This document shows, in pieces, positions 1 to 31,238 of a DNA stretch of 64,000 nucleotides. Position numbers and translations under genes: made by a program. The notes beneath the pieces were generated by a model, which worked only from the letters and a program-made list of their open reading frames with translations, ran no database searches and was not told the origin of the DNA. Where the stretch lies: the NCBI GenBank assembly GCA_965198325.1, contig CBDAPE010000015.1, positions 335,158-399,157 on the forward strand, written 5' to 3'. This stretch comes from Alphaproteobacteria bacterium (lineage in GTDB: Bacteria; Pseudomonadota; Alphaproteobacteria; UBA828; JAPUJA01). Each line of letters opens with the position of its first letter. Position 1 is the stretch's first letter.

Positions 1-150
1 CTCGCCGTCGATGCCGACGCCGTTATCCGCGACGACGACCGAAGCGCCCCGGGAGGCCAGCGCGTGCGCGATCGCAAGGCCGATTCCCCGGCCAGCGCCC
101 GTGACGATTGCCACCCGGCCGGTAAGGCTCTGGTCGGTCCGATCTGTCAT
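1..150 (-). CDS. Short-chain dehydrogenase/reductase (SDR), N-terminal part. The gene runs off the left edge of the window.
   Basis: The reverse-complement of 1-150 reads MTDRTDQSLTGRVAIVTGAGRGIGLAIAHALASRGASVVVADNG. It contains the SDR TGxxxGIG Rossmann motif. The start overlaps the stop of the downstream gene by 4 bp. Confidence 0.7.
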   Translation of the reverse strand, partial: MTDRTDQSLTGRVAIVTGAGRGIGLAIAHALASRGASVVVADNGVGIDGE

Positions 151-1175: not shown

Positions 1176-1308
1176 GCGTGGTCCGTCGTCGTTTCCAGGC
1201 AGGCATCTTGGGACCCGGGCGACCGGTTGGCAACGCGCAGACGCAGGCTATGAATTTTTCACCGGCTGGGCGAAGATTTACCGGTTCAAGATCAAGGGGG
1301 ACCGAATC

Positions 1309-1908
1309 ATGACCGACGAACGCGATCTCATAATCCCGCCTAAATCGGGGCGCGCCATCGTGGTGAAACGGGGCGAGACTCTCCGGGTGACCGACCTGGA
1401 AGGTCACCAGGTGGCCGACTTCGTGTGCTTCAACGAACACGACCATTCGGAATTTCTTTCCGCCGGGAAAACCCGGATGAACCCCTTCAAGGTCCGGATC
1501 TCGACTGGTGACAGACTCTATTCGAACCTGAGCACGGTCCTGTTTACGATCGGCAAGGACACGGTCGGCGTGCACGACCTGCTGTTCCCGCCGTGCAACC
1601 GCTGGCTCTACGAGAATGCGCTCGGCCAGCCGGGCGGCACCGGATGCCTCGAGAACCTGCGCGACGCGCTGGCGCCTTACGGGATCGAAGAATGGCAGGT
1701 GCCGGACCCGTTCAACCTGTTCATGAACACCCGCGTGGATGACGAAGACAATCTGGTCATCGAACTACCGAAATCCGGTCCGGGCGATTACATCGAACTC
1801 ACCGCCGAGATGGATTGTCTGGTCGGCGTGACCTCCTGCGCGGAGGAAAAGGCGAGCGACTGCAACGGCCGGCACGTGACCCCGATCGGGCTTGCGATCG
1901 TCCGCTGA
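1309..1908 (+). CDS. DUF1989-like (urea-carboxylase-associated family) protein
   Basis: 199 aa beginning MTDERDLIIPPKSGRAIVVKRGETLRVTDLEGHQVADFVCF. GGGGA lies about 8 nt upstream of the ATG. The longer ORF from 1174 has an Arg-rich leader and is probably not translated. The family call is from memory of the DUF1989 profile. Confidence 0.6.
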   Translation: MTDERDLIIPPKSGRAIVVKRGETLRVTDLEGHQVADFVCFNEHDHSEFLSAGKTRMNPFKVRISTGDRLYSNLSTVLFTIGKDTVGVHDLLFPPCNRWLYENALGQPGGTGCLENLRDALAPYGIEEWQVPDPFNLFMNTRVDDEDNLVIELPKSGPGDYIELTAEMDCLVGVTSCAEEKASDCNGRHVTPIGLAIVR

Positions 1909-2273
1909 TCCCGCGCGCGGCGCGCCGGCCAGGTGAAAGTCCAAGAATTGATGTCGTCATTGGATGATGGCTTGCCGAAGGGCATGGAGTAGTGGTCTCG
2001 GACGAGACTGGCTTCAAGGTCCACAGCGCCACCCTCTCGCGCGCGAGACCTTCACGAGACTTATGACGGCAGGATCGGGACAAGACGGAAGCAATATCAC
2101 GGCCCCATCGGGGGCATGATCGAAACGGGCTGTGCTCACGGTCGGGGGAAATTGGGGAGCGGGTCGATGGGCCAATCAATGCGACGTTCGAACCGGGCGC
2201 TACCCGATGAAGGCCGGTTTTGGTCTCGGCCGCGGGCTGTGCCAGCTTTTGGCGACAGGAGACGATTTATCGC

Positions 2274-2371
2274 GAAGAATTCAGCTAAGACGATTGTTCC
2301 AATGATTGCGGCCGTTATCGCCGCCTGAGGTTATTTTGGCGGACGAGGTTGGGGTAAATATAACGTGCGCC
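2274..2371. repeat. 98-bp repeat, copy A (~90% identical to 8309-8406). It carries a remnant of the Rieske-oxygenase start (GTG at 2365, reading MRHPKLTSRR then a stop).
   Basis: Direct alignment of 2274-2371 with 8309-8406 gives about 10 mismatches in 98 nt. Similarity ends exactly after gtgcgcc. Confidence 0.8.
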
Positions 2372-2450
2372 ATCCCAAGCTCACCTCCAGACGTTGACGC
2401 CCTCGCGCATCAGCCGTCCTACAACGGTACTGCGGCCGCCTGCGCAACAC

Positions 2451-2638
2451 CTTAGACGTAGTCCTTGGGGACAAGGGCTCGGCCGTCGAGCGCGAATGGT
2501 ACGATCACCTCATCGCGGCAGGGCTCGAGTCTTCCGGACATGGCACTCGCGAGGAGCCGCTTGCGTCCGGTCCTCTACCCAACAACCATGGTGGCGCAGC
2601 GAGTGTGATCGGAATCCTGGTCGGCAGGGCCGGACAGT
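2451..2638. repeat. 188-bp direct repeat, copy 1 (100% identical to 3002-3189)
   Basis: Identical 188-nt strings begin cttagacgtagtccttggggacaagg and end ggtcggcagggccggacagt. The next base differs (g vs a). Confidence 0.9.
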
Positions 2639-2639
2639 G

Positions 2640-2789
2640 CGAGAGAAGCTCATCAAGATCGGAGCGAAGATCGTGCGCCACGGGCGCTACGTCACGTTCC
2701 AGATGGCCGAGGTTGTCATTCCTCGTGACCTGTTCGCCGACATCCTGCGCCGTATCGACCGGCTCAGGCCGCCGCCAGCCCCGGCATGA
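2640..2789 (+). pseudogene. IS transposase C-terminal fragment (DDE transposase 3' end only). It starts directly at the end of the first 188-bp repeat.
   Basis: The translation REKLIKIGAKIVRHGRYVTFQMAEVVIPRDLFADILRRIDRLRPPPAPA then a stop is a characteristic transposase C-terminus. The preceding in-frame sequence is Arg-rich nonsense. No N-terminal or catalytic part is present. The IS family was not resolved. Confidence 0.6.
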
Positions 2790-3001
2790 GCGACGGCACC
2801 CCGTTCCTTCGCGTCGCCGCCGACAGGATCGGTGTGCCCGGATCGCCGGCAAAAATGCCATTCCGCGCCACCAACGCCGCCAATTGGTCCTCAATCATCC
2901 GGCTCGGCGCGAAGATGGCTGTCATTCGAAGGCAAATTGCACGTCGAGCGGTTTCGAGTCACACTCAACGGGCTGGGAGGGTTCCATATGGGGAATCCCG
3001 G

Positions 3002-3189
3002 CTTAGACGTAGTCCTTGGGGACAAGGGCTCGGCCGTCGAGCGCGAATGGTACGATCACCTCATCGCGGCAGGGCTCGAGTCTTCCGGACATGGCACTCG
3101 CGAGGAGCCGCTTGCGTCCGGTCCTCTACCCAACAACCATGGTGGCGCAGCGAGTGTGATCGGAATCCTGGTCGGCAGGGCCGGACAGT
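3002..3189. repeat. 188-bp direct repeat, copy 2
   Basis: See copy 1. Confidence 0.9.
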
Positions 3190-3500
3190 AGCTCAACTTA
3201 CAGTCGAAGCCGTCCAACGATTGGGGAGCAGCCCAATTCGGGGAGATAACAGTGAGAATTTCCGAACACATGGAACCCTACTTCCAGGGCTGAGTTACCA
3301 ACGATACCGCGGGCCACTTGAAGTCGGCCGCCAACAGAGTTTCTTTTTCGACGATCCCGACACCAGCAGAATTTCCAAGGCTGACTCCGAGGCGTATTTT
3401 GCCGCGCTCAATGTCGCGGTGGGCGAGAATCGCGCGGGCAAGACATTCAGCTATACTAACTGCCCCGAGGGCTCCCGTCGCAAAGCGAAAGGATCGCACC

Positions 3501-3872
3501 ATGACCGTGGCCGAACGCATCGAGGCCTATCTTCAGGCCTGGGTTACCGGCGATGTCTCAAGTCTGCTGGCGCAGTTTGCGGACAGTTTCTTATTCGACG
3601 ATCCCAATGTGGGCCGGATAACCCGACCTGGATTCAAAACCTACATGGAAGGTATCATGGCGAATGTCGAGCGTGTACGCGATGGCCGGAAATGCGAAAA
3701 TTTCGTGGAACTGAGCGAGATAGTCTCCAAGCACGAAGACGACGGCACAGCCACCCTCTGGTACTGGTGGGCCATCGCCGGCACGACGATCGAAGGATCC
3801 AGCCTCGTAAAGATCGGGCCCGAAGGCGTTCGCTCCGAGATCTACTGCTACTATGCCCGGACAGCGGAATGA
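3501..3872 (+). CDS. SnoaL-like/NTF2-fold small protein
   Basis: 123 aa beginning MTVAERIEAYLQAWVTGDVSSLLAQFADSFLFDDPNVG. The pattern is typical of SnoaL/NTF2-like proteins. AAAGGA lies 8 nt upstream of the ATG. Confidence 0.55.
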   Translation: MTVAERIEAYLQAWVTGDVSSLLAQFADSFLFDDPNVGRITRPGFKTYMEGIMANVERVRDGRKCENFVELSEIVSKHEDDGTATLWYWWAIAGTTIEGSSLVKIGPEGVRSEIYCYYARTAE

Positions 3873-4408
3873 CCGCGCGGCATTGTTCGGGGAAACAGAC
3901 ATCGTCAGGGTAAATTGGATGGAACCTCCTGACGAGTTTCATAACCTCCAGGGATGCAACACCGATTCCGCTATTTTGACATTTCGCTCGAAGTGACCCG
4001 CCTCGCGGAGATGATGTACGTCCACCACCCTAACCACTGCGATCTGTTCGAACAGAACCGCGCTGCCGCGCTCACGGAAAGGCGCCAACTCGCCGCGTGA
4101 GGGTCTTGATCGTTTCAAATCCCAAGGCTCAGCCCAATAATTTCTGTCCGCCCGTGGCCCGATCTATAACCTCTTCAACGCGCAACGCCATCTCGTTTTC
4201 CGCCACACGCTTCGAACCTTTTGCGATCACGCGATGGAGGAATGGAACGCTGTGACGGCGGCCGCGTGAATAGACCGGACTTCAAGTAAAAACCTGCCTC
4301 GCTTAAGTTAAGTTGACAGCTCCTATTTGACAACTCAGATACCTCAGCATTAAGGTCATAGAAAACGTTATAAATAATTTGCAGAGAGTGTCACAGGGAG
4401 ATTAAATC

Positions 4409-5476
4409 ATGACATCTGGCACATTTAAAATAGTCGCCGTGTCGGCCGCGCTGTTTGCTAGTACTGCGTTCAGTTACTTGGCCACTACGGCCACTACGGC
4501 ATTTGCAGGCGAGTTAAACCTACTCACGTGGGAAGGATACACTGACCAGAGCTTTATCGCCGCTTTCGAGGAGAGGACCGGATGTAAGATCACCGAGACC
4601 TTTATTGGGTCGCAGGAAGAGATCGCACCCAAGCTCTCGGGTGCCACGGGAGTCTACGACCTCGTCTCCCCCCAGATCGATTCGGCAAAAATCTTAGCTC
4701 AGATGGGTGTGGTTGAGCCTATTGACGTTCCGCGCCTCAAGCATTGGGGGGAATTCTACGGGTCGTTCATTGATCATCCCGGTCTCATCATCGACGGCGA
4801 GACGTGGGGTATGCCGTTTACCTGGGGTTCGGTCCCCCTGATGTATCGCACGGATAAGATCGACGATCCTCCGTCCTCGTTCTCGGTTCTCTGGGATCCG
4901 AGGTATGCCGGCAAGACCGCAGTGCAGGACGACAAGTCCAATATTTACATTGCTGCCCGTCTGCTCTTTGGGAGGGACTTTGACGCCTACAAGATGACCG
5001 ATGAGCAGCTTGAAACCGTGAAAGAAAAGTTAATCGAACAGAAAAAATACCTCCGCAAGTATTGGGCATCGGCGGGTGAACTTATAAATCTCTATGCGAA
5101 CGGTGAAGTCTGGATTTCTACCACTTGGGGCGGCTACCAAGTGGCTATACTCCAAGAACAGGGTATCCCAGTCGTTGAAGTCCTTCCCGAGGAGAGGGCC
5201 GAAGGATGGCAGGATGTCTGGATGATCGTAAAAGACACCGCCAATAGGGATTGTGCCTACGAGTGGCTCAACTTTGCGAGCGGATCCGAGGGCCAATGCG
5301 GAGTCGCAAGTGTCACGGGATATTGGGGAGCAAACCCGGTGGCGCTAGAGAGCTGCATGACGCCGGACATATTCCGTCCCTCCGAAGATTATACCGATAA
5401 CCTCTCGTTCCCAACTCAGCCGGAACCGCTTGAAGGCTATGTTAACACTTGGAATGCCGTAAAGACCGCCCCTTGA
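4409..5476 (+). CDS. Periplasmic substrate-binding protein, ABC family 1 (spermidine/putrescine PotD/PotF-like). It is an orphan: no permease or ATPase lies nearby.
   Basis: 355 aa with an N-terminal signal peptide (MTSGTFKIVAVSAALFASTAFSYLA...AFA). The codon usage is noticeably AT-richer than the flanks. An AT-rich promoter-like region with two TTGACA boxes lies at about 4310-4340. Confidence 0.7.
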   Translation: MTSGTFKIVAVSAALFASTAFSYLATTATTAFAGELNLLTWEGYTDQSFIAAFEERTGCKITETFIGSQEEIAPKLSGATGVYDLVSPQIDSAKILAQMGVVEPIDVPRLKHWGEFYGSFIDHPGLIIDGETWGMPFTWGSVPLMYRTDKIDDPPSSFSVLWDPRYAGKTAVQDDKSNIYIAARLLFGRDFDAYKMTDEQLETVKEKLIEQKKYLRKYWASAGELINLYANGEVWISTTWGGYQVAILQEQGIPVVEVLPEERAEGWQDVWMIVKDTANRDCAYEWLNFASGSEGQCGVASVTGYWGANPVALESCMTPDIFRPSEDYTDNLSFPTQPEPLEGYVNTWNAVKTAP

Positions 5477-5520
5477 TGGGCGATGACGGCGTCAAGTGAA
5501 CTAAACCACACTGGAGGAGT

Positions 5521-5547
5521 CCCGCCCCTTTGATGTCGAGGGGCGGG
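5521..5547 (+). terminator. Putative intrinsic terminator after the binding-protein gene
   Basis: cccgcccc-tttgatgtcga-ggggcggg forms an 8-bp GC stem, followed by atttcgtg. Confidence 0.45.
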
Positions 5548-5702
5548 ATTTCGTGCGAACTCCAAGCCGATCCTGGAAACGATCTCTTTGAGGCCGAAAT
5601 GGTTATCAAGAATAAGAGTGAATCCTGCATGCCTTGGCCAATTTTCTAATAGCCTTGAAGTCACTTCGAGAATGCACAACCAGAGACCCGTGAGAGGAAC
5701 AC

Positions 5703-8297
5703 GTGCCGTCGATTTATAAGATACAGCCCGAAGATCGGATTTACGCTGAAGAATTTCGTCGAAATCCGATTGGCCACCACAGCCCTGGGTTAAATCGCAT
5801 TCTCACCTTGTTTAGAGGTGAACCGGTCGAGAAGAAAGATGTTCTCGTATGCGTACAACCCCACCGAGAGTGGTGGCTGGGACAGTTGTCCGGGCACCGA
5901 GGAAGGCCAATCAGGATTATTCGAGATAAGTGTTTTAGAAATCTCTGGGACGCGGAGTGGGAGATTTTCAAAAGGCGGTGGAAAAAGCATACGGGCGAAG
6001 ACCTTGAAGGCCAGGATAAGCAGCGCGAAGCCCCCCACTCCTATCGGGACGACGGCATCAGGATTACAGGTTATAGCGACCGCATCGGTGTGAGGCCGGG
6101 CGAAACCATCCACTTCAAGGTCTCATGCGACCGCGTCAAGAGCTACCGCTCCGACATTGTCCGTCTCGTCTGCGGCGACACTGATCCTAATGGGCCGGGC
6201 TTCAAGGAGAAGCTCGTGAAGACTGGTGTGAGCGGGCGCTACAAAGGTCGAAAACAGGCGATTCGCGTGGGATCCCACACGATCGTGCCCACTGCATCCG
6301 CACTCGAAGCGCTGGAGAGCTTTTCCCTGCAAGCGATGATTTGGCCGACTACTCCCAGGAAAAGTATTCAAGGGATCATTTCAAAGTGGTCCGCAGGGTC
6401 AAAAAGTGGATTTGCACTAATCATCGACGAGAAGGGCGAGGCCGCCCTAATGGTCGGGGACGGAGCCGGCCGAGTGCACATCGTCAGCACGGGACGACGC
6501 CTGCTCGATCGGCAATGGTATTTCGTGGGGGCAAGTTTTGATGCCCGGGCGCAGCGAGTCCGTGTATTTCAGGAGCCGCTTGTGCAGTTTCCGGGACATG
6601 ATGACCCTGCTGTAAAAAGCCAAACGCTCGAGCTAGCTCGGGTCGGAGCAAATGACTGTCCGTTAATCATGGCCGGAATACAGCAGCGATCTTCGAAGGC
6701 TCGGATAATCGTGGGAAACCACTATAACGGCAAGATTGACAGCCCACGTCTTGCCAACCGAGCCCTTTCACCAGCGGAGGTGGAGACCCTTAAGCATGGC
6801 GTTCCCGCCGCTCTCGAAGATGCGGTCGTTGCCGCTTGGGACTTCTCGCGCGACATTGGCTCCGAGCGCATTGCAGACCTTTCGCCCAACCAGCTCCAGG
6901 GCACGATGGTCAACCTGCCCACGCGCGCGGTAACGGGCTGGAATTGGACGGGGCAGCATATGCGCTGGAGCGAGGCCCCCGAGCAATGGGGCGCGATTCA
7001 CTTTCATGACGACGATCTTTACGACGCGGGCTGGGAGACGGATTTTGAGTGGAAAGTGCCCGGGCGTATGAAGAGCGGTCTCTACGCTACGCGCCTTCGC
7101 TCCGGACGATCCGAGGAATACGTTCCTTTTGCCGTCGGGCCGAGGCCAGGGCACGAGTCGAAGGTAGCACTCCTTCTGCCAACCGCCAGTTACATGGCCT
7201 ACGCCAACGAGCACTCAGGAACGGACTCGGACACGATTGAACGGATGAACGGCGTTGTTTGCGTCCTGTACCCGCAAGACCTGTTTCTAAACAAGCATCG
7301 GGAATACGGTGCCTCGCTCTACGACACGCACACAGACGGGAGTGGTGTCGTCTACTCTTCGCGCCTGCGTCCGATCCTGAACATGCGGCCCAAATACGAA
7401 TCCAACATGGGCGGAGCGAAAGTCCACCAGTTCAACGCGGATACCCACATCATCGACTGGCTCGAGGCGAACGACATCGAATACGACGTCATTACGGACG
7501 AGGAGCTCGACCGACGTGGCATGGCGTTGCTGTCCCCTTACCGGGTTGTGCTCACCGGGACCCATCCGGAGTACTGGTCGCCTAAGATGCAGGACGGGAT
7601 GGTCGCCTACGAGCGCCGCGGGGGACGACTGATGTATCTGGGCGGCAACGGGTTCTACTGGAAGATCGCCTTTCACCCGGAATTGCCCGGCGTGATCGAA
7701 GTCCGCCGCAACGAGACCGGCATGCGCGCCTGGCCGTCGGCGCCCGGTGACTACTACCACGCCTTCGACGGCGAATACGGTGGCCTCTGGCTGAACCAGG
7801 GCGGCGGGAGAACACAACAGTCTATGGTCGGAACCGCCTTTTGCGCCCAGGGGTTCGATCTTTCCTCCTACTACCGGCGCAAGCCGGACAGTCTTGACCA
7901 GAAGGTGAAATTCATTTTCGAGGGGATCGAAGACGACGAGTTGATCGGCGATTTCGGGTTGCTTGGAGGGGGCGCGGCCGGCTGGGAGATCGACTGTATT
8001 TCCTATGATCAAGGGACGCCGTCAAACACATTCGTTTTGGCGAGTTCTGAGGACCATACGGACGTTTATCAGCTTACTGCCGAAGAGATGCTCGAAGGTT
8101 ACGCGGGCACCGGAGGACAAGAAAATCCTCGCGTTCGTTCAGATATGGTGTTTTTCGAGACTGCAGATGGCGGAGCCGTGTTCTCAGTCAGCTCGATTGC
8201 CTGGGCGGCGAGCTTGTCGCACAACAATTATAAGAACAATGTTTCGCGGATAACGAAAAACGTTTTGACTCGCTTCCTCGATCCAAGAGTCTTCTAA
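5703..8297 (+). CDS. Large (864 aa) protein resembling the N,N-dimethylformamidase large (beta) subunit family (GATase1-like C-terminal domain)
   Basis: GTG start with GAGAGGA 5 nt upstream. The C-terminal half has LLLPTASYMAYANE, RVVLTGTHPEYWSPKMQDGMVAYERRGGRLMYLGGNGFYWK and AFDGEYGGLWLNQGGG. I recall these as characteristic of DMFase large-subunit/GATase1-like proteins. No small-subunit gene is adjacent. The family call is from memory. Confidence 0.45.
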   Translation: MPSIYKIQPEDRIYAEEFRRNPIGHHSPGLNRILTLFRGEPVEKKDVLVCVQPHREWWLGQLSGHRGRPIRIIRDKCFRNLWDAEWEIFKRRWKKHTGEDLEGQDKQREAPHSYRDDGIRITGYSDRIGVRPGETIHFKVSCDRVKSYRSDIVRLVCGDTDPNGPGFKEKLVKTGVSGRYKGRKQAIRVGSHTIVPTASALEALESFSLQAMIWPTTPRKSIQGIISKWSAGSKSGFALIIDEKGEAALMVGDGAGRVHIVSTGRRLLDRQWYFVGASFDARAQRVRVFQEPLVQFPGHDDPAVKSQTLELARVGANDCPLIMAGIQQRSSKARIIVGNHYNGKIDSPRLANRALSPAEVETLKHGVPAALEDAVVAAWDFSRDIGSERIADLSPNQLQGTMVNLPTRAVTGWNWTGQHMRWSEAPEQWGAIHFHDDDLYDAGWETDFEWKVPGRMKSGLYATRLRSGRSEEYVPFAVGPRPGHESKVALLLPTASYMAYANEHSGTDSDTIERMNGVVCVLYPQDLFLNKHREYGASLYDTHTDGSGVVYSSRLRPILNMRPKYESNMGGAKVHQFNADTHIIDWLEANDIEYDVITDEELDRRGMALLSPYRVVLTGTHPEYWSPKMQDGMVAYERRGGRLMYLGGNGFYWKIAFHPELPGVIEVRRNETGMRAWPSAPGDYYHAFDGEYGGLWLNQGGGRTQQSMVGTAFCAQGFDLSSYYRRKPDSLDQKVKFIFEGIEDDELIGDFGLLGGGAAGWEIDCISYDQGTPSNTFVLASSEDHTDVYQLTAEEMLEGYAGTGGQENPRVRSDMVFFETADGGAVFSVSSIAWAASLSHNNYKNNVSRITKNVLTRFLDPRVF

Positions 8298-8308
8298 CTG
8301 TTTATTGG

Positions 8309-8406
8309 GAAGAACTCAGCTAAGATGATTGTTCCCATGATTGCAGCCACTATCGCCACCTGAGGTTATTTTGGCGGACGAGGTTGAGGTAAATTTAACG
8401 TGCGCC
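8309..8406. repeat. 98-bp repeat, copy B. It contains the leader and the GTG start (8400) of the intact Rieske oxygenase gene.
   Basis: See copy A. Confidence 0.8.
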
Positions 8407-9572
8407 TGGAAGATTTTATCGATCGCGAACGCTTGGCCGACCTTGACCGGCCGATAGGCGAAACGGCCGGTCTCCCGGGAAGCGCGTACAGCGAGGGATT
8501 TTACAAACTCGAACAAAGGGAATTTTTTCCCCGCACATGGTGTGCCATCGCCGTCGGATCGCAAGTTCCCAGACCGGGAGATGTGATACCCATCGACCTC
8601 GCGGGCTGGCCGCTCCTCCTTGTTCGCAATCAGTCGGGTCAAATCAAGGTTTTCCACAACATGTGTCAACACCGGGGCATGCGCGTCGTGACGAAGTCCG
8701 CATGTCGCCAGGAGCTTCGGTGCCCGTGGCATGCCTGGACCTACGATCTGGATGGCCGTCTCAAAACGCGGCGCGATTTCGCAGGTTGGAACGCGCCGGA
8801 TGCCGGAGACATGAATGCGGAGCTACCCGGACTTAAAGAAGTGCGGTCGGATCAGTGGCACGACTACGTAATGGTCAATATCGACGGCAAGGCGCCGCCG
8901 CTTCGAGATCATATCAAGCCTCTCGATGACTTCCTCCAGGACTACGATCTTGATGCTTTCGAGTACGCGAACACGCTGGAGCATTCTTACGAAGGCAACT
9001 GGAAGCTGGCGATGGAGGGTGGGCTCGAGGAATACCATCTACGTTCGGCGCATCCCCGCTTTGCCAAGGGCGTCATTTCGCAAAATCTTGAGTTCAGCCT
9101 CGATGCGGCCTGCCATTCGGGTTACCTGTTCTCTCGGAACTTTGGAGAAACCGAAAGGGCGGATCGAGTGGGCGAGCGCGGCATGCCGGCTCGTCCTGGT
9201 ACCCCACGCGACGTTGAGAACTATTACCTGATCAACCTATTTCCTGTGGGCCTGATGCTCCTTGAGGACGATCACGCAATCTTCATCTTGTTTACCCCCG
9301 ATGGTTGGAACCGCACGCGCGTCGTCAACTACCACTATTATTTTGGTGCCGCGGCTGTTGATCCGGCTTATGCCGAGGTCCGCAAGGAGTTTGAAGACGT
9401 TTGGACAGAGGTGATGTACCAGGACGCGGATTTCGTGAAATACGTCCATGAGAATGCGCAGCTGCGTGATGCGGTCGGCATCAATTCGCACTTCGCGCCT
9501 TATTGGGAAAGGCCGGTCCAGCATTTTCAACGACTCGTCATAGATACGATGAAAAATAGCTCGGACGGATGA
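8400..9572 (+). CDS. Rieske [2Fe-2S] non-haem iron oxygenase alpha subunit (GbcA/Stc2/CntA-like N-demethylating monooxygenase family)
   Basis: 390 aa. The Rieske motif is CQHRG...x17...CPWHAW (CxH...CxxH). A downstream catalytic domain is present. GAGG lies upstream of the GTG. Confidence 0.85.
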   Translation: MRLEDFIDRERLADLDRPIGETAGLPGSAYSEGFYKLEQREFFPRTWCAIAVGSQVPRPGDVIPIDLAGWPLLLVRNQSGQIKVFHNMCQHRGMRVVTKSACRQELRCPWHAWTYDLDGRLKTRRDFAGWNAPDAGDMNAELPGLKEVRSDQWHDYVMVNIDGKAPPLRDHIKPLDDFLQDYDLDAFEYANTLEHSYEGNWKLAMEGGLEEYHLRSAHPRFAKGVISQNLEFSLDAACHSGYLFSRNFGETERADRVGERGMPARPGTPRDVENYYLINLFPVGLMLLEDDHAIFILFTPDGWNRTRVVNYHYYFGAAAVDPAYAEVRKEFEDVWTEVMYQDADFVKYVHENAQLRDAVGINSHFAPYWERPVQHFQRLVIDTMKNSSDG

Positions 9573-9896
9573 GGGCGGGCGGCCAAGCTGGTTGAAGCCG
9601 GCTGAATTGGGATTGCCGGGCGAGTCAATTCCCAGCGCTCGCGGACGCCCGATCTGAATCTGATTCCAAGTCTTTAAAATATTTGCTTTGGGCCAGAAGC
9701 GGCCCCCGCTGGCGGAGAATTCGAACGGCCTGCAATGTGTCCGCGGACGGACTCTCGGATGGTGGCTCCAGACCCTAAATGAGAACGGCGGCGCAATAAT
9801 CCCCCCCTGAAGCGGCCGGTTGATCCGGCTGTGGCGGACCAAAATGGGACCGTCTATAGCCTTCTGTCAGGGTTGCTCTGACTGGAAGGCGGGGGG

Positions 9897-10253
9897 ATGT
9901 ATCGGGTGGATTTGTACGCGCGGGTTCGGCGGGCGTGTCGTGTCGAGGGAATGAGCACCCGCGAGGCCTCGCGGGTGTTCGGGCTGGACCGCAAGACGGT
10001 CCGCAAGATGCTGTCGTTCTCGGTGCCGCCGGGGTCTCGCCGCGGCAAGCCGCCACGGCGGCCGAAGCGGGGTCCGTTCACGGGGATCATCGATCGGATT
10101 CTGGAAGACGATCGGACCAGCCACCACAAGCAACGGCCCACGGCGAAGCGGATCTTCGACCGTCTCCGGGACGAGTACGGCTTTACGGGCGGCTACACCA
10201 TCGTGAAGGACTATGTCCGTGAGCGGCGGCTTCGGTCGCGCGAGATGTTCGTC
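9897..10253 (+). pseudogene. istA: IS21-family istA, 5' fragment
   Basis: The translation is MYRVDLYARVRRACRVEGMSTREASRVFGLDRKTVRKMLS...GYTIVKDYVRERRLRSREMFV. This is the HTH N-terminus of IstA. It is cut off after REMFV. Confidence 0.75.
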
Positions 10254-11432
10254 GCTGTCCAGATATCTTGTGTAAATGAGTGCCGTGGGTCCACCTACGA
10301 TGAGGACTATCAGACCTGAACTTCGACGAACTTCTGGCCGATTACGAGAAGCCGGATGACCTGCTGGGCGAAGACGGGCTTCGGTGCTCGAGCGGGCGCT
10401 TGGCGATGAGCGATCACCGGCTACGAGAAGGGTGACCCGGCGGTCGCGGCACGTAACAGCGGCTACTCGGACAAGACGGTGCTGAGCGAGGATGGCGAGA
10501 TCGATATCGCCGTGCCGCGCGACCGCACCGGCACGTTCGACCCGCTGATCGTGCCCAAGGGCGAACGCCGTCTCGAGGGCTTCGACGATCGCATCGTGTC
10601 GCTGTATGCCCGCGGCATGACGGTGCGCGAGATACGTGGCCATCTGCAGGAGCTTTACGGGGTCGCGGTTTCGCCGGACCTGATCAGCCGGGTCACCGAC
10701 GCGGTACTCGAGGAGGTCCGCGAATGGCAGAACCGACCGCTCGATGCGGTCTATCCGGTGGTGTTCTTTGACGCGCTGCGGGTCAAGATCCGCGACGAAG
10801 GCCTGGTGCGCAACAAAGCAGTCTACGTTGCACTGGCCCTCACCGCTGAAGGCGAGAAGGAGGTTCTCGGGCTGTGGATCGAGCAGACCGAAGGCGCCAA
10901 GTTCTGGCTCAAGGTGATGAACGACCTCAAGACCCGCGGCGTCGCTGACATCCTGATCGCCGTGGTCGACGGCCTCAAGGGCTTCCCCGAGGCGATAACA
11001 ACGGTGTTCCCCGAGACCACGGTGCAGACCTGCATCGTGCATCTGATCCGCAGTTCGCTGGCGTTCGTGTCGTGGAAGGACCGAAAGAGGATCATGCCCG
11101 ATATCAAGGCGATCTACCGCGCCGAAACCGCCGAGACCGCGGCGGCCAAGCTCGACGAGTTCGAGGCCAAATGGGGCGAGCGCTATCCGGCGATCGCGCC
11201 CAGCTGGCGCCGCGCCTCGCCGATGTTCGCGCGCCGGGATCCGCGATCTACACCACCAATGGAGCCTGCACCGGCGCAAGATCAAGACACGCGGTAGCAA
11301 CGACCGCGGTCAAGCGGTTCCTGGCGATCCGCAATGCCTTGGAAACGGCCTATTGAATGGACCGCCGCAATGGGGCGCGATCTGTTCGAGGATCCTTTCC
11401 GGCCTCAGCGCGCTCGAAACAATGTCGCCCCG
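10254..11432 (+). pseudogene. IS256-family transposase, degenerate (multiple frameshifts), inserted in istA
   Basis: Frame C reads FDELLADYEKPDDLLGEDGL, then there is a frame break. The central part is TGTFDPLIVPKGERR...DDRIVSLYARGMTVREIRGHLQELYGV...VYVALALTAEGEKEVLGLWIEQTEGAKFWLKVMNDLKTRGV...VVDGLKGFPEAITTVFPETTVQTCIVHLIR. The tail IYTTN...MPWKRPIEWTAAMGRDLFEDPFRP is in other frames. Confidence 0.8.
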
Positions 11433-14796: not shown

Positions 14797-15870
14797 TTAG
14801 GCTGCGGCGAAGTCGGCCAGGCGGATCGGCGCACGGCGCGCGCCCCAAGTGCCGGCGGGGCCGTCGAAGCGCCCCGCAAGCGGGGTCGCGCAGTGGGTAC
14901 AGCGGCCGTCGTCGGTGAGGTTCCAGGCGCCGAGCCGGTACCAATCGCGCTCGATCAGGAGACCGCCGCAACCGTGGCAATAGGTGGAGCCGCCGTCCGA
15001 ATCATGGACGTTGCCCGTATAGGCGTAGCGCACGCCGTTGCGCATGGCGATACCCCTGGCCCGGGTCAGCGTCGCAGGCGGGGTTGCCGGCTGGTCGCGC
15101 ATCTTCCAGTCCGGGTGAAAGGCGGTGAAGTGCATCGGCACGTCGGGTCCGAGCTCGTCGACGACCCAGCGGGTCATAGCATCGAGTTCCTCGTCGGAAT
15201 CGTTCTCGCCCGGGATCAACAGGGTCGTGAGCTCGAACCAGACATCGGTCTCATGCTTGAGCCAGACCAGGGTATCGAGCACCGGCGCGAGCTCGGCACC
15301 ACAGATCTTGCGGTAGAAAACGTCGGTGAAGGCCTTCAGGTCTATGTTCGCGGCGTCCATGTCGCGGTAGAACTCGACGCGAGGCTCCTTGCAGATATAG
15401 CCCGCAGTGACCGCAACCGTGCCGATCTCCGCCTCGCGGGCGGCGCGCGCGATGTCGAGCGCATATTCGAAGAAGATGACCGGGTCGTTGTAGGTGAACG
15501 CGATCGAGCGGCAGCCGGTCGCCTTCGCGGCACGCACGATCACTTGCGGCGACGCGGCGTCGGCAAGGGTGTCGATCTCGCGCGACTTGCTGATGTCCCA
15601 GTTCTGGCAGAATTTGCAGGTCAGGTTGCAACCCGCCGTGCCGAACGACAGGACGGGGGATCCCGGCAGGTAGTGGTTGAGCGGCTTCTTCTCGATTGGG
15701 TCGATGCAGTATCCGGACGAGCGGCCGTAGCTCGTCATCACCAGACCGTCGCCGGCCCGTGCCCGGATGAAGCACAGGCCCCGCTGACCTTCGTGAAGCT
15801 TGCAGTAGCGCGGGCAAATATCGCACTGGATACGGCCGTCTTCGAGCGCATGCCAATAGCGCCCCGGCAC
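14797..15870 (-). CDS. amrS: AmmeMemoRadiSam system radical SAM enzyme (AmrS)
   Basis: Contains GRYWHALEDGRIQCDICPRYCKLHEGQRGLC and a CNLTCKFCQN radical-SAM cluster motif (CxxxCxxC). A C-terminal CHGCGG...CTHC motif is present. The start chosen is the GTG at 15870, giving VPGRYW. The annotated ORF extends to 16125 but would overlap the divergent neighbour by 55 bp. Confidence 0.8.
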   Translation of the reverse strand: MPGRYWHALEDGRIQCDICPRYCKLHEGQRGLCFIRARAGDGLVMTSYGRSSGYCIDPIEKKPLNHYLPGSPVLSFGTAGCNLTCKFCQNWDISKSREIDTLADAASPQVIVRAAKATGCRSIAFTYNDPVIFFEYALDIARAAREAEIGTVAVTAGYICKEPRVEFYRDMDAANIDLKAFTDVFYRKICGAELAPVLDTLVWLKHETDVWFELTTLLIPGENDSDEELDAMTRWVVDELGPDVPMHFTAFHPDWKMRDQPATPPATLTRARGIAMRNGVRYAYTGNVHDSDGGSTYCHGCGGLLIERDWYRLGAWNLTDDGRCTHCATPLAGRFDGPAGTWGARRAPIRLADFAAA

Positions 15871-16070
15871 GATCGACGGATCGCGCGCAGCCTCTTCGGC
15901 TGTAACCGCGTTATCGATGACACCCTCCTCGCCGGACTTGATGCTGCGCCCGACCGTACTAAGGTAAGCAAGGAGCTTGCCGGTTTCAATCGGCAGGCGG
16001 CGGCCTCGCTTTACGGCTCCGCCGGTGCGCGCTAGGCTTCCGGCCCGGGCGAGCGCCCAAGGAGGAGACG

Positions 16071-17510
16071 ATGACGAGTGTGCGACCCGCGGCGGTGGCG
16101 GGTACATTCTACCCCGGCGATGCACGCAATCTTACGGACGCGATCCAAGGCTACCTCGCCGGCGTTGCAGCCCAAGGACCCGCGCCCAAGGCGCTGATCG
16201 CGCCCCATGCGGGCTATATCTATTCGGGTCCGATCGCCGCGTCCGTGTACGGCCGGTTACGGGAGGCGGCGGGCCGGATCCGCCGGGTCGTGCTTCTCGG
16301 CCCCTCTCACTACGTTGCCCTCAGCGGTCTTGCGGTCCCGTCCGTCGATTTTTTCGAGACGCCGCTGGGAAAGATTGCCATCGATACCAAGGCGCGGGCG
16401 CGGGTTGCCGGGCTCGCACAGGTCACCATCGACGACGGGCCGCACGCCCGGGAACACAGCCTGGAGGTCCAGTTGCCGTTCCTGCAGGACGTGCTCGACG
16501 ATTTTGTCCTTCTGCCGCTGTCGGTCGGCCAGGCGACGGCGGCCGAGGTTGCCGAAGTGATCGAGGCACTGTGGGGCGGCGAAGAGACCCTGATCGTCAT
16601 CAGCTCCGATCTTTCCCATTATCACGACTACGCCACAGCCCAACGGCTTGACGCGGAAACCTCCAAGGCCATCGAGCAGCTCAGCCTTCACGATATCGGG
16701 CAGGCTTCGGCCTGCGGCCGGGTGCCGATCTACGGCCTGTTGACCGTTGCACAGCGCCGAGGCCTGTCGGCCACAACGATCGACCTGCGCAACTCAGGTG
16801 ATACGGCGGGCCCGCGGGATCGGGTCGTAGGCTATGGCGCCTACGTGTTTGGGCCTGAGGGCAGCGGCGCGAAAACCAGCGATGGCACCGGCTTGGCGGG
16901 CGATGACGACACGGAAGACCCGGCGCTCGCCCGTCTACTCGCGAGTCACGGCGATACGCTGCTCCACGTCGCCCGGGTCTCGCTCGAATCGGGCGTAAAT
17001 CGTGGCCGGGCGGCCGATGTCGAAATCGCGAATGCACCTGACGCACTCAAGATCCACGGCGCCAGCTTCGTCACTCTCGAAGAGGCGGGGCGCCTTCGGG
17101 GTTGCATCGGTTCGCCCCAGGCCTGGCGGCCGCTGGCCATCGACGTCGCCGAGAACGCCTACCGGGCAGGCTTCGAGGATCCCCGGTTCGAGGCAATCGA
17201 GGCACCGGACCTCGACCGCGTCGATGTCTCGGTCTCGGTGTTGGGTGAGCCCCGACGCTTCGCAGTGGAGTCCGAAGACGATCTGATCGCCAAGCTACGG
17301 CCGGGTGTCGACGGTCTGATCCTGCGCGACCAGGGAAAAAGCGGCCTGTTTCTGCCCGCGGTCTGGGAGAAATTACCCGAGGCGCCGGACTTCGTCGGCC
17401 GCCTCAAACTCAAGGCAGGTCTCACGGCCGATCACTGGTCGGATCAGATGGAGATCTGGCGTTTCGTCAGCGCCTCGGTTTCACAGCCGGCAACGACTGC
17501 CACGCGGTAA
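16071..17510 (+). CDS. Fusion protein: an N-terminal Memo-like (AmrB) domain and a C-terminal AMMECR1 (AmrA) domain
   Basis: N-terminus: AGTFYPGDARNLTDAIQGYL...ALIAPHAGYIYSGPIAASVY...LLGPSHY (Memo/MEMO1 family). C-terminus: HGASFVTLEEAGRLRGCIGSPQAWRPL (AMMECR1 LRGCIG motif). A strong AAGGAGG RBS is present. Confidence 0.85.
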   Translation: MTSVRPAAVAGTFYPGDARNLTDAIQGYLAGVAAQGPAPKALIAPHAGYIYSGPIAASVYGRLREAAGRIRRVVLLGPSHYVALSGLAVPSVDFFETPLGKIAIDTKARARVAGLAQVTIDDGPHAREHSLEVQLPFLQDVLDDFVLLPLSVGQATAAEVAEVIEALWGGEETLIVISSDLSHYHDYATAQRLDAETSKAIEQLSLHDIGQASACGRVPIYGLLTVAQRRGLSATTIDLRNSGDTAGPRDRVVGYGAYVFGPEGSGAKTSDGTGLAGDDDTEDPALARLLASHGDTLLHVARVSLESGVNRGRAADVEIANAPDALKIHGASFVTLEEAGRLRGCIGSPQAWRPLAIDVAENAYRAGFEDPRFEAIEAPDLDRVDVSVSVLGEPRRFAVESEDDLIAKLRPGVDGLILRDQGKSGLFLPAVWEKLPEAPDFVGRLKLKAGLTADHWSDQMEIWRFVSASVSQPATTATR

Positions 17511-21044: not shown

Positions 21045-22367
21045 CTAGGTTACCGTGCTGATAATCCGTTGATGCTCCATGCGCTTGATCCTGCCGAATA
21101 GCTCGAAGAAATCCCCGCCCATGCCCTGCGGAATCCAGGCGGAATTATCGAAATTATCAAGCAACTTGGACCAGTCGGTCGTGATTTTGGGGACACTCTC
21201 ATCCAAATCGAGATGGCCCTTGGCCGGGGGGCCGGGGTCGAGCTCGTTCTTGATGCCGTCGAGGCCGCCGGCAATCAGCGCAGCGAGCCCGAGATGCAGG
21301 CAAATGTCGCCGCCCGGAACGCGCAGCTCGATCCGCGTCCCTTTCGGGGTGACGTTGATCGCGCGCACCGCCGCGACGCGGTTGTCCATGCCCCAGGCGA
21401 TGGAGATGGGCGCGAAGCTTTCCGGCGCGATGCGCTTGCACGAGTTGGGATAGGGCAGATAGATCGTGGCAAGCTCTTCGAGATGGGCGAGGACGCCGCC
21501 GATGAAATAGCGACAGACCCGGCTGATCTTGAGCGGATCGTTATCGTCGGCGAAGGCGTTGCTGCCGTCTTTGTTCGCGAGAGAGAAATGCAAGTGGCAG
21601 GAACTGCCCGCCTCTTCGGTGTAGGGCTTGGCCATGAAGGTCACCTGCCGGTCCATGGCGACGGCGGTCTCCTTCAGGGTCGCGCGGAAGAGGTGCCCGG
21701 CATCGGCGATGGCCATCGCCTCGCCATATTCCGCGGTGATCTCGAACTGACCGGGGCCGTATTCGTAGTTGCACGCCTCGTAGTCGACATGGGCCGAGGC
21801 GGCGTCGATCAACGCCTGTTCTTCCTCACGGAAACCCCAGCGCTTGAGCATCGAGTAGGCGTTCGCCCCGGTGTCGCACAGCTGATGATCCGCATCGAGA
21901 AAATAGAACTCGAACTCGGGCGCCGCGTAGGCCGTGAAACCAAGCTCGTTGAGCTGGGCCAGGCCGCTTTTTAACAGGTTGCGCGGATCTTCGACGACGG
22001 GGCTGCCGTCGGCCCAGTGCAGGTTGGTCAGGCATTGGGCGGTGTTGGGCTCGTGACGGAGCAGGCGCATCGAGCCGAGATCGGGCACGGCGTAGAAATC
22101 GCCGAACCCGATCTCCTCGCCGAACCGGGTGTTGCGCAGCCAGCGAGCCTGGAGATCGATGGCGAACAGCAGGGCGGCGAAGAGCACGCCCTTGTGGCGC
22201 AGATCGTCGAAGGTGTCGAGCGCGAGGCGTTTTCCTCGGGGGATGCCGTGCAGGTCCATCCATTCGACGCGCACCTTCTCGACCCCGTTGGCGCGAAGCC
22301 AATCCATGACTTCGCCGTCGCCGCCCTGGAACCGCCGAATGTTGCCGTGATCCCCCGTTGCCACCAT
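21045..22367 (-). CDS. Glutamine synthetase family protein (GSI-like; candidate gamma-glutamyl-amine ligase of the GlnA3/PuuA/GmaS type)
   Basis: 440 aa from MVATGDHG (GGAGA RBS). A GS catalytic-domain pattern is present: EFEFYFLD...NYEYGPGQFE...HLHFSL. Confidence 0.8.
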   Translation of the reverse strand: MVATGDHGNIRRFQGGDGEVMDWLRANGVEKVRVEWMDLHGIPRGKRLALDTFDDLRHKGVLFAALLFAIDLQARWLRNTRFGEEIGFGDFYAVPDLGSMRLLRHEPNTAQCLTNLHWADGSPVVEDPRNLLKSGLAQLNELGFTAYAAPEFEFYFLDADHQLCDTGANAYSMLKRWGFREEEQALIDAASAHVDYEACNYEYGPGQFEITAEYGEAMAIADAGHLFRATLKETAVAMDRQVTFMAKPYTEEAGSSCHLHFSLANKDGSNAFADDNDPLKISRVCRYFIGGVLAHLEELATIYLPYPNSCKRIAPESFAPISIAWGMDNRVAAVRAINVTPKGTRIELRVPGGDICLHLGLAALIAGGLDGIKNELDPGPPAKGHLDLDESVPKITTDWSKLLDNFDNSAWIPQGMGGDFFELFGRIKRMEHQRIISTVT

Positions 22368-22478
22368 TGATGGTCTCCCCATTCCTGAGTCGAACGCCGA
22401 ACGTGCCCCATCCGCAGGGTGCCCGACCATTCAAGGCAGATTATATCAGCCATGGGGGAGCGTCACCCGGTGCGTCGA

Positions 22479-23302
22479 TCAGGCCGGGCGCTCCCAGACC
22501 CGCGGAAACTGCAGATCGAGATCGAACGAATCTCCGGTCTTGAGATCGGTCGGGTATTTCGGAAACTCGGCGGGCGGGTCGCGCAGGACGAACCAGGAAT
22601 TCTCGGACAGCCAGCGATGGGTCAGCGAGCGGCGCGTCTGGTTCGTCGTCGGATTGGCGCGTCCCTGATGGAGCGTCAAGCCATGAAAAAACAAGACATC
22701 GCCAGGCTCCATTTCCCAAAAGACGATGTCGTAATTGTCCCGGTTGGCCTCGATCTCGGGAACGCGTTCGAAGACGTCGCCGGGATAGCGCGAGCCGTCG
22801 GCCAGGCTGTCGATCGGCGCAAACCAACGGTTCCATTTATGGGAGCCGCGGATGAACTCGACGCAGAATTCCTCGCCCATACAGAACAACGGAATCCAGT
22901 TCGAACTCATCTGCCCATCGACCGCCATGTAGGGCAGATCCTGGTGCCAATTGGTCAGCGCGAGCGTGCCGGCCTCCTTGACAAAGACGTGGTCGTCAAA
23001 AAGGTTTACCCGGCTTGCCCCGATGAGCCTGCCCGCGAGCTCGGCGCAGGGCCCCTCGAACGCGAAACGTTTGAGCTCCGGCACGTGACGCCACATATAG
23101 AAATCGTTGAAGAAATAACCGGGGCGCCTTCCTTCGTGTAGATCTCCGCATAGGGGCCGGGATCCGCCATATCCTGTTCGACGCCGGTTCGGATCATTTC
23201 AATCCACGCAGGCTCGATGGCGCCCCGCAGGCAGACGACACCGTCTTCTTCGTAGGCCCGGATATGCTCGTCGGTGATCTCGAAGCTGGCCGCCTTCGTC
23301 AT
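22479..23302 (-). pseudogene. Phytanoyl-CoA dioxygenase (PhyH) family Fe(II)/2OG oxygenase, frameshifted. Tandem paralogue of 23358-24182.
   Basis: MTKAASFEITDEHIRAYEEDGVVCLRGAIEPAWIEMIRTGVEQDMADPGPYAEIYTKEGAP is followed by a frame break in a C/G homopolymer near 23105-23112. It continues as YFFNDFYMWRHVPELKRFAFEGPC...HWHQD-like in another frame. Confidence 0.7.
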
Positions 23303-23357
23303 TCGGCGTCGCTCTTCTCTCCCGGTCAGCCCGCCGCTACGCCGCCCGGTACGTCGA

Positions 23358-24182
23358 TCAGGCCGCCTGCTCCCAGACCCGCGGGAACTGGGGATCGAGG
23401 TCGATCGGATCGCCGGTCTTGAGCCCGGTCGGATATTTCGGGAATTCGGCGGGCGGGTCGCGCAGAACGAACCGGGCGTCGTCGGCCAGCCACCGGTGGG
23501 TCAGCGAGCGGCGGGTCTCGTTCGAGGTCGGGTTGGCGCGGCCCTGGTGGACCATCAGGCCTTGGAAGAAAAGGATGTCGCCGGGCTCCATTTCCCAAAA
23601 GACGATGTCGTAGTCGGCGCGATTGGCCTCGATCTCCGGGACCCGCTCGAAGACCCTGCTGGGATGGCGGGAGCCATCGAGCAGGCTGTCGACTGGCGCG
23701 AACCAGCGCTCCCATTTATGGGAGCCGCGAACGAACTCGACGCAGAGCTCTTCGGGAGCCGAAAACAGTGGAATCCAGTTCGAGCACATCCGTCCATCGA
23801 CGGCCATGTAAGGCTGATCCTGATGCCAGTGAGTGGGTGTCTGCGTGCCCGCCTCCTTGACGAAGATGTGGTCGAAAAAAAAGTTGACCCGGTTCGTCTG
23901 CATGAGCTTGCCAGCGATTTCGGCGCAGGGTCCCTCAAAGACGAATTGTTTAAGTTCGGGCACGTGGCGCCACATGTCGAAATCATTGAAGAAATAACCG
24001 AGATCGCTGGCGTCTGTATAAATCTCCACATTGGGGCCCGGTTCCGCCATGTCCTTCTCGACGCCGGTCTTGATCGTCTCGATCCATTTGGGCGAGATGG
24101 CACTTCGCAGGCAGACCACGCCGTCTTCCTGAAAGGCCCTGACCTGCTCGTCGGTAATCTCGAAGCTGTCGGGTTTCATCAT
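23358..24182 (-). CDS. Phytanoyl-CoA dioxygenase (PhyH) family Fe(II)/2-oxoglutarate-dependent oxygenase
   Basis: 274 aa from MMKPDSFEITDEQVRAFQEDGVVCLRSAI (GAGGGA RBS). HWHQDQPYMAVDG (HxD) is present, and a downstream His in FFQGLMVHQGRANPT. Confidence 0.75.
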   Translation of the reverse strand: MMKPDSFEITDEQVRAFQEDGVVCLRSAISPKWIETIKTGVEKDMAEPGPNVEIYTDASDLGYFFNDFDMWRHVPELKQFVFEGPCAEIAGKLMQTNRVNFFFDHIFVKEAGTQTPTHWHQDQPYMAVDGRMCSNWIPLFSAPEELCVEFVRGSHKWERWFAPVDSLLDGSRHPSRVFERVPEIEANRADYDIVFWEMEPGDILFFQGLMVHQGRANPTSNETRRSLTHRWLADDARFVLRDPPAEFPKYPTGLKTGDPIDLDPQFPRVWEQAA

Positions 24183-24308
24183 TCGTTGTCCCTCGTTCCC
24201 GCCAATCAAACGATCCCGTCTCCCACCCGCCCCAGCCCGAGGGCGATCGCGCCCCGCTGGCAGCGAGGATCGATGCATTGTCTAAAAAAACAGACAGTAG
24301 ATGCAAGT

Positions 24309-31161: not shown

Positions 31162-31238
31162 TGGTCGGAGCGGCGGGATTCGAACCCACGACCCCTTGTC
31201 CCCCAGACAAGTGCGCTACCAGACTGCGCCACGCTCCG
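31162..31238 (-). tRNA. tRNA-Pro (anticodon GGG)
   Basis: The reverse complement folds as a canonical cloverleaf: CGGAGCG-TG-GCGC-AGTCTGGTA-GCGC-A-CTTGT-CTGGGGG-ACAAG-GGGTC-GTGGG-TTCGAAT-CCCGC-CGCTCCG-A-CCA. Confidence 0.9.

Follow-up and report, generated by a model that had tools for sequence, protein, structure and literature searches.

Gamma-glutamylation is a recurring way in which bacteria handle amines such as putrescine, isopropylamine, anilines, methylamine and ethanolamine, and the glutamylated intermediate is then oxidized by a flavin oxidase (Puu), a cytochrome P450 (Ipu) or a Rieske oxygenase (aniline and naphthylamine). In the Puu pathway of E. coli, the gamma-glutamylputrescine synthetase PuuA works together with the oxidase PuuB, the aldehyde dehydrogenase PuuC and the hydrolase PuuD, and a dedicated hydrolase is encoded in both the Puu and the Ipu clusters. 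Here, we analyzed a 64,000-nucleotide stretch of alphaproteobacterial DNA (contig CBDAPE010000015.1, positions 335,158 to 399,157; hereafter the window), in which two paralogous genes of the PhyH family, predicted to encode iron/2-oxoglutarate-dependent (Fe/2OG) dioxygenases and here called PhyH-A and PhyH-B, lie beside a gene for a glutamine synthetase (GS)-like ligase. Two of the three genes of this cassette are damaged in this genome, and the pairing is limited to one narrow lineage. We tentatively read the cassette as a lineage-restricted accessory operon for handling a small nitrogen compound, a reading that we rate at somewhat less than an even chance.

That a GS-like gene and two paralogous PhyH-family genes occupy positions 21045-24182, as a first-pass annotation of the sequence had proposed, was borne out by Pfam matches and by the identity of about 74% between the PhyH-A and PhyH-B proteins (Table 1). 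These gene identities are not attributable to chance.

To classify the ligase, its sequence was aligned with E. coli GlnA, E. coli PuuA, M. mazei GS, a GmaS-type protein from another locus (L022) and the protein annotated as IpuC on pTC1, with residues numbered as in the GS of S. typhimurium. The residues of the metal, ATP and glutamate sites are retained (E129, E131, E212, E220, G265, H269, H271, R321, R339, R344, R355, E357 and R359), whereas the ammonium loop with D50' and S53' is replaced by a PuuA-like segment (FAALLFAIDL), N264 of GlnA is an alanine, as in PuuA and IpuC, and the flap residue E327 is a phenylalanine (tyrosine in PuuA, tryptophan in IpuC and GmaS). Conserved metal, ATP and glutamate sites combined with the loss of Asp50' and of the Glu flap form the signature of glutamyl-organic-amide synthetases (GoaS) (PMC11335346), and the window ligase fits this signature on both counts. 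AtdA1, TdnQ and NpaA1 carry the same signature (PMC11335346); in contrast to the cassette, the aniline and naphthylamine systems act on aromatic amines and include a Rieske oxygenase and a GATase-like partner, and no such genes adjoin the cassette. The NCBIfam models gave scores far below their cut-offs in every case, with 196 bits for the PuuA equivalog model NF045547 (cut-off 650), 193 for the GmaS model TIGR03105 (cut-off 470) and 189 for the GlnA model TIGR00653 (cut-off 429). The PDB entries that matched best by sequence were archaeal glutamine synthetases (E 1.7e-46); GmaS entries and PA5508 came next.

The phylogenetic analysis used few references, and in a neighbor-joining (NJ) tree with 100 bootstraps the window clade grouped with PuuA and actinobacterial GS-like proteins at 100%, leaving E. 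coli GlnA, M. mazei GS and the GmaS-type protein outside; in the same tree, the ligase was set apart from GSI-alpha and GSI-beta references at 97-100% bootstrap. In a second tree, IpuC entered the same group as the window ligase and PuuA. Judged by its residues, its sub-cut-off GlnA score and its position with PuuA and IpuC, the protein is not a true GlnA and is predicted to be a glutamyl-organic-amide synthetase of the PuuA/IpuC type. The first-pass annotation had placed it with the gamma-glutamyl-amine ligases, and this placement stands, as no clustering with true GlnA was found. The homology to PuuA extends over the full length (28% identity, tblastn E 1.7e-40) and includes the N-terminal loop, A264, the lack of an acidic residue at the E327 flap position and membership of the same NJ clade, and the identity to pTC1 IpuC is 31% (E 8e-48). 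GmaS, a gamma-glutamylmethylamide synthetase, belongs to the same superfamily and shows the same loss of ammonium-site residues, but the window ligase branches apart from the L022 GmaS-type protein (548 bits for TIGR03105), and the PDB entries of GmaS match it more weakly than those of archaeal GS.

For the dioxygenases, PhyH-A and the 3' piece of PhyH-B matched PF05721 with 90.7 and 68.7 bits, respectively (cut-off 22). Among 34 homologues, H120, D122 and H212 do not vary and R224/R225 are nearly invariant, and this HxD...H triad and the RR pair align with the WHND, H and RR of MysH and are also present in PhyH-B once its reading frame is repaired. The 2-His-1-carboxylate residues are therefore intact by alignment, and the AlphaFold2 model of PhyH-A shows a confident fold (predicted local distance difference test, pLDDT, 94.2), the double-stranded beta-helix of this family; the arginine of the RR pair presumably anchors 2OG. 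The nearest PDB entry is MysH (phmmer E 7e-34 over the full length, Foldseek E 1.4e-22), at 28-29% identity in a structure-based alignment, and SnoK/SnoN, GriE, proline hydroxylase, EctD and PhyH are among the other Foldseek matches to PhyH-A. With a full-length match, the same fold and the aligned triad and RR pair, MysH (PDB 9c9n and 9pze) is the characterized protein closest to both PhyH copies. It acts on mycosporine-like amino acids, hydroxylating their N-linked glycyl group at the alpha position; hydrolysis of the C-N bond then yields a palythine and glyoxylate (PMC10666671). An identity this low would not predict the same substrate, and we take the likeness to MysH as a mechanistic lead rather than an assignment. 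A context of mycosporine biosynthesis was ruled out, since the window genes lie outside any mysABCD cluster and are flanked by genes for SRAP, Fe-ADH, PanB/C, an outer-membrane beta-barrel protein (OMP) and DnaJ.

A separate feature was seen within PhyH-A, whose 5' 240 nt (24182-23940) are 72-79% identical to copy 2 of the relatives and 58-67% identical to their copy 1. The remainder of the gene is equidistant from both copies and PhyH-A is the most divergent member of its group, and gene conversion between the tandem PhyH paralogues is possible.

According to the open reading frame (ORF) listing and the family searches, the genes for SRAP, PhyH-A, PhyH-B, the GS-like ligase and OMP are five successive minus-strand genes, and the cassette is transcribed in the order PhyH-A, PhyH-B, ligase. 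The first-pass annotation was right about the content, coordinates and shared strand of the three genes but had the ligase directly upstream of the PhyH pair, whereas on the minus strand it lies 3' of both. The ligase ORF opens at 22430, and its start was set at 22367 according to the homologues P0001 and P0002. Gaps of 55 bp and 111 bp separate the cassette genes, and neither was found to contain a terminator-like hairpin. No sigma-70 consensus was found at the locus, which is uninformative because the host is an alphaproteobacterium, and the Rfam search for regulatory RNAs and riboswitches matched only one tRNA. From this arrangement, we infer that PhyH-A, PhyH-B and the ligase gene are co-transcribed.

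Table 1 Features of the ligase-dioxygenase cassette and its immediate neighbors in the window
Feature	Position	Strand	Evidence or state in relatives
SRAP peptidase gene	25028-24309	minus	ORF listing and family search
Intergenic stretch 5' of PhyH-A, presumed promoter region	24183-24308	minus	
PhyH-A, 274 aa, first cassette gene	24182-23358	minus	PF05721, E 2.2e-25
PhyH-B, paralogue of PhyH-A, pseudogene	23302-22479	minus	PF05721, E 1e-18; overlapping ORF pieces 23302-23006 and 23096-22479
Frameshift site in PhyH-B, CCCC where the frame needs five bases	23124-23121	minus	DNA alignment of PhyH-A and PhyH-B
GS-like ligase gene, 440 aa at present, last cassette gene	22367-21045	minus	Gln-synt_C, E 3.6e-77
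Premature TAG in the ligase gene	21047-21045	minus	CAG in L001 and L173
Former ligase stop, now CGA	21014-21012	minus	TGA in L001
OMP gene	20976-20335	minus	ORF listing and family search

The lesion in PhyH-B is a 1-nt deletion in the run GCG-CCCC-GG and the lone gap in the DNA alignment with PhyH-A. Insertion of one C restores a full-length protein of 274 aa with every conserved and catalytic motif, which is 90% identical to the intact orthologue in the relative L001. The ratio of non-synonymous to synonymous divergence (dN/dS) between the two is 0.24, indicating that purifying selection acted on PhyH-B until recently; with this value after repair and all motifs intact, an old pseudogene was ruled out. 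L173, assembled independently from a different sample and 99.6% identical to the window, has the same CCCC run, and the truncated 205-aa product is on record for two contigs, with a variant on a third (L173). A one-off assembly error was ruled out by L173 and the further contig, leaving a systematic long-read error as still possible. The DNA alignment and L173 thus agree with the first-pass annotation that the proximal paralogue, next to the ligase gene, is frameshifted and the distal copy intact. Loss of this second paralogue is recurrent among the relatives: in L011, an Illumina metagenome-assembled genome (MAG) of another species, copy 2 is independently broken and split over at least three frames (7690-8599) and copy 1 is intact, and in three assemblies near L001 copy 2 is a truncated product of 146 aa (P0249-P0251), with two others keeping it whole.

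The first-pass annotation had taken the intact distal copy as presumably functional. It did not note that the ligase gene is damaged as well. Homologues of the ligase end in ...TVVQEERDELIEMI followed by the stop codon, and the window protein ends in ...STVT. A new TAG deletes the last 11 residues, which are conserved in the homologues, and the 11 former codons can still be read in frame beyond it. The ancestral TGA has become CGA in both the window and L173, and the codon that is TAG in the window is CAG in L173; an ORF not ended by this TAG would continue to about 20628, adding about 125-130 codons and running over the start of the OMP gene. The 440-aa product is also present in a second assembly (P0242). 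The simplest account is a loss of the stop at species level, followed by a new upstream stop in the window strain; the reverse sequence, in which the new upstream stop arose before the old one was lost, is possible.

A comparison of the window with L173 gave 8 non-synonymous changes (stop included) and 0 synonymous ones in the three cassette genes, against 4 and 5, respectively, in the flanking genes (p = 0.02 for the contrast, hypergeometric). The comparison of the ligase gene with L001 gave a dN/dS of 0.12, i.e. strong long-term constraint. Taking the long-term constraint, the lesions and the absence of synonymous changes together, we conclude that selection on the whole cassette has recently been relaxed in the window species. 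The coverage of L173, only 2x, weighs against this conclusion, as part of its differences may be sequencing errors; such errors should not spare the synonymous sites of the cassette alone. The cassette is being lost here, with a frameshift in PhyH-B, a lost and a premature stop in the ligase gene and recent changes that are all non-synonymous, and in this genome it is probably no longer fully functional.

In related genomes, the PhyH-PhyH-GS order with both PhyH genes intact was found in L001, JGI 3300072015, L002 and L010. The ligase is 86% identical to that of the window in L001 and 68% in L002 and L010, and synonymous sites are saturated across the cassette-bearing relatives. Exactly these three genes are bracketed in L002 and L010 by a divergent gene for a GntR/FCD regulator, which occupies the stretch 5' of the first PhyH gene, and by a gene for a double-ACT protein on the downstream side, and the presence of these two proteins is typical of a small catabolic operon. 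The DNA identity between the window and L001 is 80-94% for PhyH-B and the ligase gene and 65-80% for the flanks.

The segment 23330-21100 showed an uneven divergence from L001: PhyH-B is 91-94% identical at the DNA level (synonymous divergence, dS, 0.19), the ligase gene 80-91% (dS 0.64), and the flanking genes have a dS of 0.8-1.1. This pattern suggests a recent recombination or transfer of the PhyH-B/ligase segment between the window and L001 species, or an unusual constraint. The borders of the cassette are remodelled among the relatives. SRAP is full length in the window and L001, which both have neither the GntR regulator nor the ACT gene, and is cut down to an 89-aa fragment abutting the GntR regulator in L002 (4838-5891) and L010 (5753-6806). 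L001 also carries two copies of an rve-family insertion sequence (4224-5186 and 15469-16431), one of them between Fe-ADH and SRAP, and both are absent from the window.

If the three enzymes act together, the ligase would use ATP to join an organic amine, rather than ammonia, to the gamma-carboxyl group of glutamate, and one or both MysH-like Fe/2OG dioxygenases would then oxidize the carbon next to the nitrogen. In one form of this model, the carbon alpha to the new amide nitrogen would be hydroxylated, giving an unstable carbinolamide that would break down to glutamine and an aldehyde. This alpha-hydroxylation form is attractive because the hydrolase is missing and because MysH-type chemistry breaks a C-N bond. 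The full two-enzyme route, in which the amine nitrogen would pass straight into glutamine through spontaneous collapse of the carbinolamide, needing neither a hydrolase nor an amine oxidase, is a long shot. The coupling of the enzymes, the order of their reactions and the substrate of the cassette are all matters that we infer; functional coupling of the ligase and the dioxygenases is plausible, close to evenly balanced, with adjacency as its sole basis.

Among the described systems, the pTC1 cluster of Paenarthrobacter aurescens also has its oxygenase genes 5' of ipuC, the gene for a gamma-glutamylisopropylamide synthetase, on the same strand, and the logic of hydroxylating a gamma-glutamylated amine would be shared with the cassette. 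The Ipu oxygenase, however, is a P450 with ferredoxin and reductase, and the pTC1 cluster includes a glutamine-amidotransferase-type hydrolase, a short-chain dehydrogenase/reductase and an aldehyde dehydrogenase, all of which the window cassette lacks. The adjoining oxidizing enzymes also set the cassette apart from Puu, being Fe/2OG dioxygenases instead of an FAD oxidase. An Fe/2OG enzyme in this role has a precedent in the beta-ethynylserine pathway, where BesA is an ATP-dependent ligase and the Fe/2OG hydroxylase BesE requires its substrate to be gamma-glutamylated (bioRxiv 10.1101/2025.10.10.681649). The likeness lies in the succession of an ATP-dependent gamma-glutamyl ligase and an Fe/2OG hydroxylase that needs the gamma-glutamyl handle, and was drawn by description, not homology; the Bes pathway differs in being biosynthetic and actinobacterial. 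Given this precedent, the suggestion that an Fe/2OG hydroxylase acting on a gamma-glutamyl substrate would be new was overstated, and the cassette would be a variant, not a new principle.

If the coupling is true, an Fe/2OG dioxygenase would take the oxidizing role in a gamma-glutamylation pathway and might make the hydrolase unnecessary, and the cassette would be a new module by which uncultured aquatic Alphaproteobacteria scavenge amine nitrogen. Two large orphan subfamilies would thereby gain a first functional handle, with >400 ligase relatives and >500 dioxygenase relatives in public data, the latter in heterotrophic bacteria and in varied contexts. The route to glutamine and an aldehyde, if true, would be a new ending for a gamma-glutamylation pathway and would give a catabolic role to the dioxygenase clade nearest the sunscreen-biosynthesis enzyme MysH. 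If the coupling is false, the locus still illustrates cleanly how an accessory cassette looks in mid-decay, marked by a shared frameshift, a stop loss with a new upstream stop and recent changes that are only non-synonymous.

The results on genomic context weigh against a coupling. None of the 80 metagenome loci with ligase relatives (30-52% identity) had a PhyH homologue in the flanks, and ligase orthologues of 48-61% identity occupy unrelated contexts; a 2OG-FeII_Oxy gene near the L004 orthologue and a distant PhyH gene 4 kb from the L008 orthologue were seen, neither of them recurrent. From the dioxygenase side, a genome scan gave 80 loci, 75 of them independent, around which a GS-family gene was sought within 7 kb. 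Only one of the 75 (L022) had such a gene, of the GmaS type (TIGR03105, 548 bits), divergently oriented and two genes away. With a few GS-family genes per genome and about 14 neighbors per locus, we estimate that about one case is expected in 75 loci, so that L022 is at chance level. The neighbors of the dioxygenase family are highly variable, too much so to give a clue to the substrate: tandem paralogues, ABC transporters, enoyl-CoA hydratase, homogentisate-pathway genes and DAO-GCV_T were each found at a few loci, and Roseobacter plasmid copies of the dioxygenase pair with LysR regulators near carnitine-type genes. With E. coli queries, tblastn found no homologues of PuuB, PuuC, PuuD, PuuP or PuuR in the window; near the cassette there is no gamma-glutamyl hydrolase, aldehyde dehydrogenase, oxidase or transporter of the Puu or Ipu type, and no PuuD/IpuF-type hydrolase or aldehyde dehydrogenase was found in the related loci either. 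The cassette-bearing genomes all share the panB, panC, Fe-ADH, SRAP and OMP flanks, so the pairing counts as one evolutionary origin, and the adjacency may be no more than inherited synteny. A literature search for GS-like proteins together with phytanoyl-CoA dioxygenase gave nothing relevant. Of the gamma-glutamylation pathway proposed in the first-pass annotation, the class of the ligase holds, but the pairing is confined to one syntenic lineage and the Puu/Ipu partners are missing.

The L022 locus (149-6675), from an unrelated MAG, holds two tandem MysH-like PhyH genes at a distance of 2.4 kb from its GmaS-type ligase gene. ORFs that resemble EamA-type transporters lie between and after these genes, followed by a D-2-hydroxyacid/glyoxylate-reductase-like gene.

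The same results on context would follow if the ligase and the two dioxygenases have different substrates and owe their adjacency only to placement in one ancestor, an explanation that we consider somewhat unlikely yet take seriously. There is no co-occurrence beyond the one syntenic lineage, and both families sit in variable contexts elsewhere; with the housekeeping flanks conserved in the same genomes, the adjacency could be plain inheritance, and the proximal PhyH copy has repeatedly been lost from genomes in which the ligase stays. Against unrelated neighbors stand the shared strand, the short gaps and an order kept despite saturated synonymous divergence, together with the dedicated regulator and the ACT protein that bracket just these three genes in L002 and L010. 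PhyH-B and the ligase gene moreover share a raised DNA conservation, and the ligase and a dioxygenase are both lesioned in the window species, as expected under joint release from selection.

The reactions might also run in the reverse order, with the dioxygenases first dealkylating a secondary or tertiary N-alkyl compound through hydroxylation of the carbon adjoining the nitrogen and the ligase then trapping the released primary amine on glutamate. MysH N-dealkylates its free substrate (PMC10666671), the dioxygenase genes come first in the cassette, and two paralogues could carry out two successive dealkylations; in cultured Roseobacters, relatives of the dioxygenases are found among ABC transporters, an annotated carnitine 3-dehydrogenase and a Rieske oxygenase gene, and an island in the window with an N,N-dimethylformamidase (DMFase)-like amidase, a solute-binding protein and a Rieske oxygenase lies 13-20 kb from the cassette. 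However, the ipu cluster illustrates that the order of genes is no guide to that of reactions, an enzyme to process the gamma-glutamyl amide would still be missing, and the second paralogue is dispensable in several genomes. We regard this order as distinctly unlikely.

A biosynthetic function in the manner of Bes, with a hydroxylated gamma-glutamyl product (for example, an antimetabolite or osmolyte), appears highly improbable. The BesA/BesE precedent (bioRxiv 10.1101/2025.10.10.681649) speaks for such a function, as do the biosynthetic roles of MysH, SnoK/SnoN and GriE, the closest PDB relatives of the dioxygenase, and the absence of catabolic follow-up enzymes; yet no further biosynthetic, exporter or resistance genes lie nearby, a GntR/FCD regulator is more typical of catabolic operons, and the characterized members of the ligase clade are catabolic. 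An ordinary glutamine synthetase for ammonium assimilation, for which the archaeal GS entries among the top PDB matches and an L006 orthologue adjoining bipA, as glnA does in E. coli, could be cited, has next to no chance, given the substitution of D50', S53', N264 and E327, the low TIGR00653 score and the separation from the GSI-alpha and GSI-beta references. The L006 orthologue (6107-9350) is 49% identical and lies directly 3' of bipA, comparable to glnA-bipA of E. coli (L092), which may be coincidence.

Elsewhere in the window, positions 1-11300 have a low GC content (52-60%, compared with about 64%) and are bounded by transposase remnants, namely a DDE fragment (2394-2789) and a truncated Mutator-family transposase (10479-11297). 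This region encodes a Fer2/FAD/NAD reductase (147-1175, minus strand), a DUF1989 protein (1174-1908), a polyamine-type solute-binding protein (4409-5476), an N,N-dimethylformamidase-beta-like protein (5703-8297) and a Rieske oxygenase alpha subunit (8400-9572), and it looks like a mobile island for amide or amine catabolism. In L008, the ligase orthologue lies about 5 kb from a DMFase gene pair, and a link between the island and the cassette is possible.

A fused Memo-AMMECR1 gene (16071-17510, plus strand) is arranged divergently from a radical-SAM gene (16125-14797, minus strand); Memo and AMMECR1 are separate genes in L002 and fused in the window and L001. ARAGORN called a tRNA-Cys of 97 nt at 44792-44888, which overlaps long ORFs, falls under the Rfam tRNA threshold and is probably a false positive, and the tRNA-Pro at 31162-31238 was called by both ARAGORN and Rfam.

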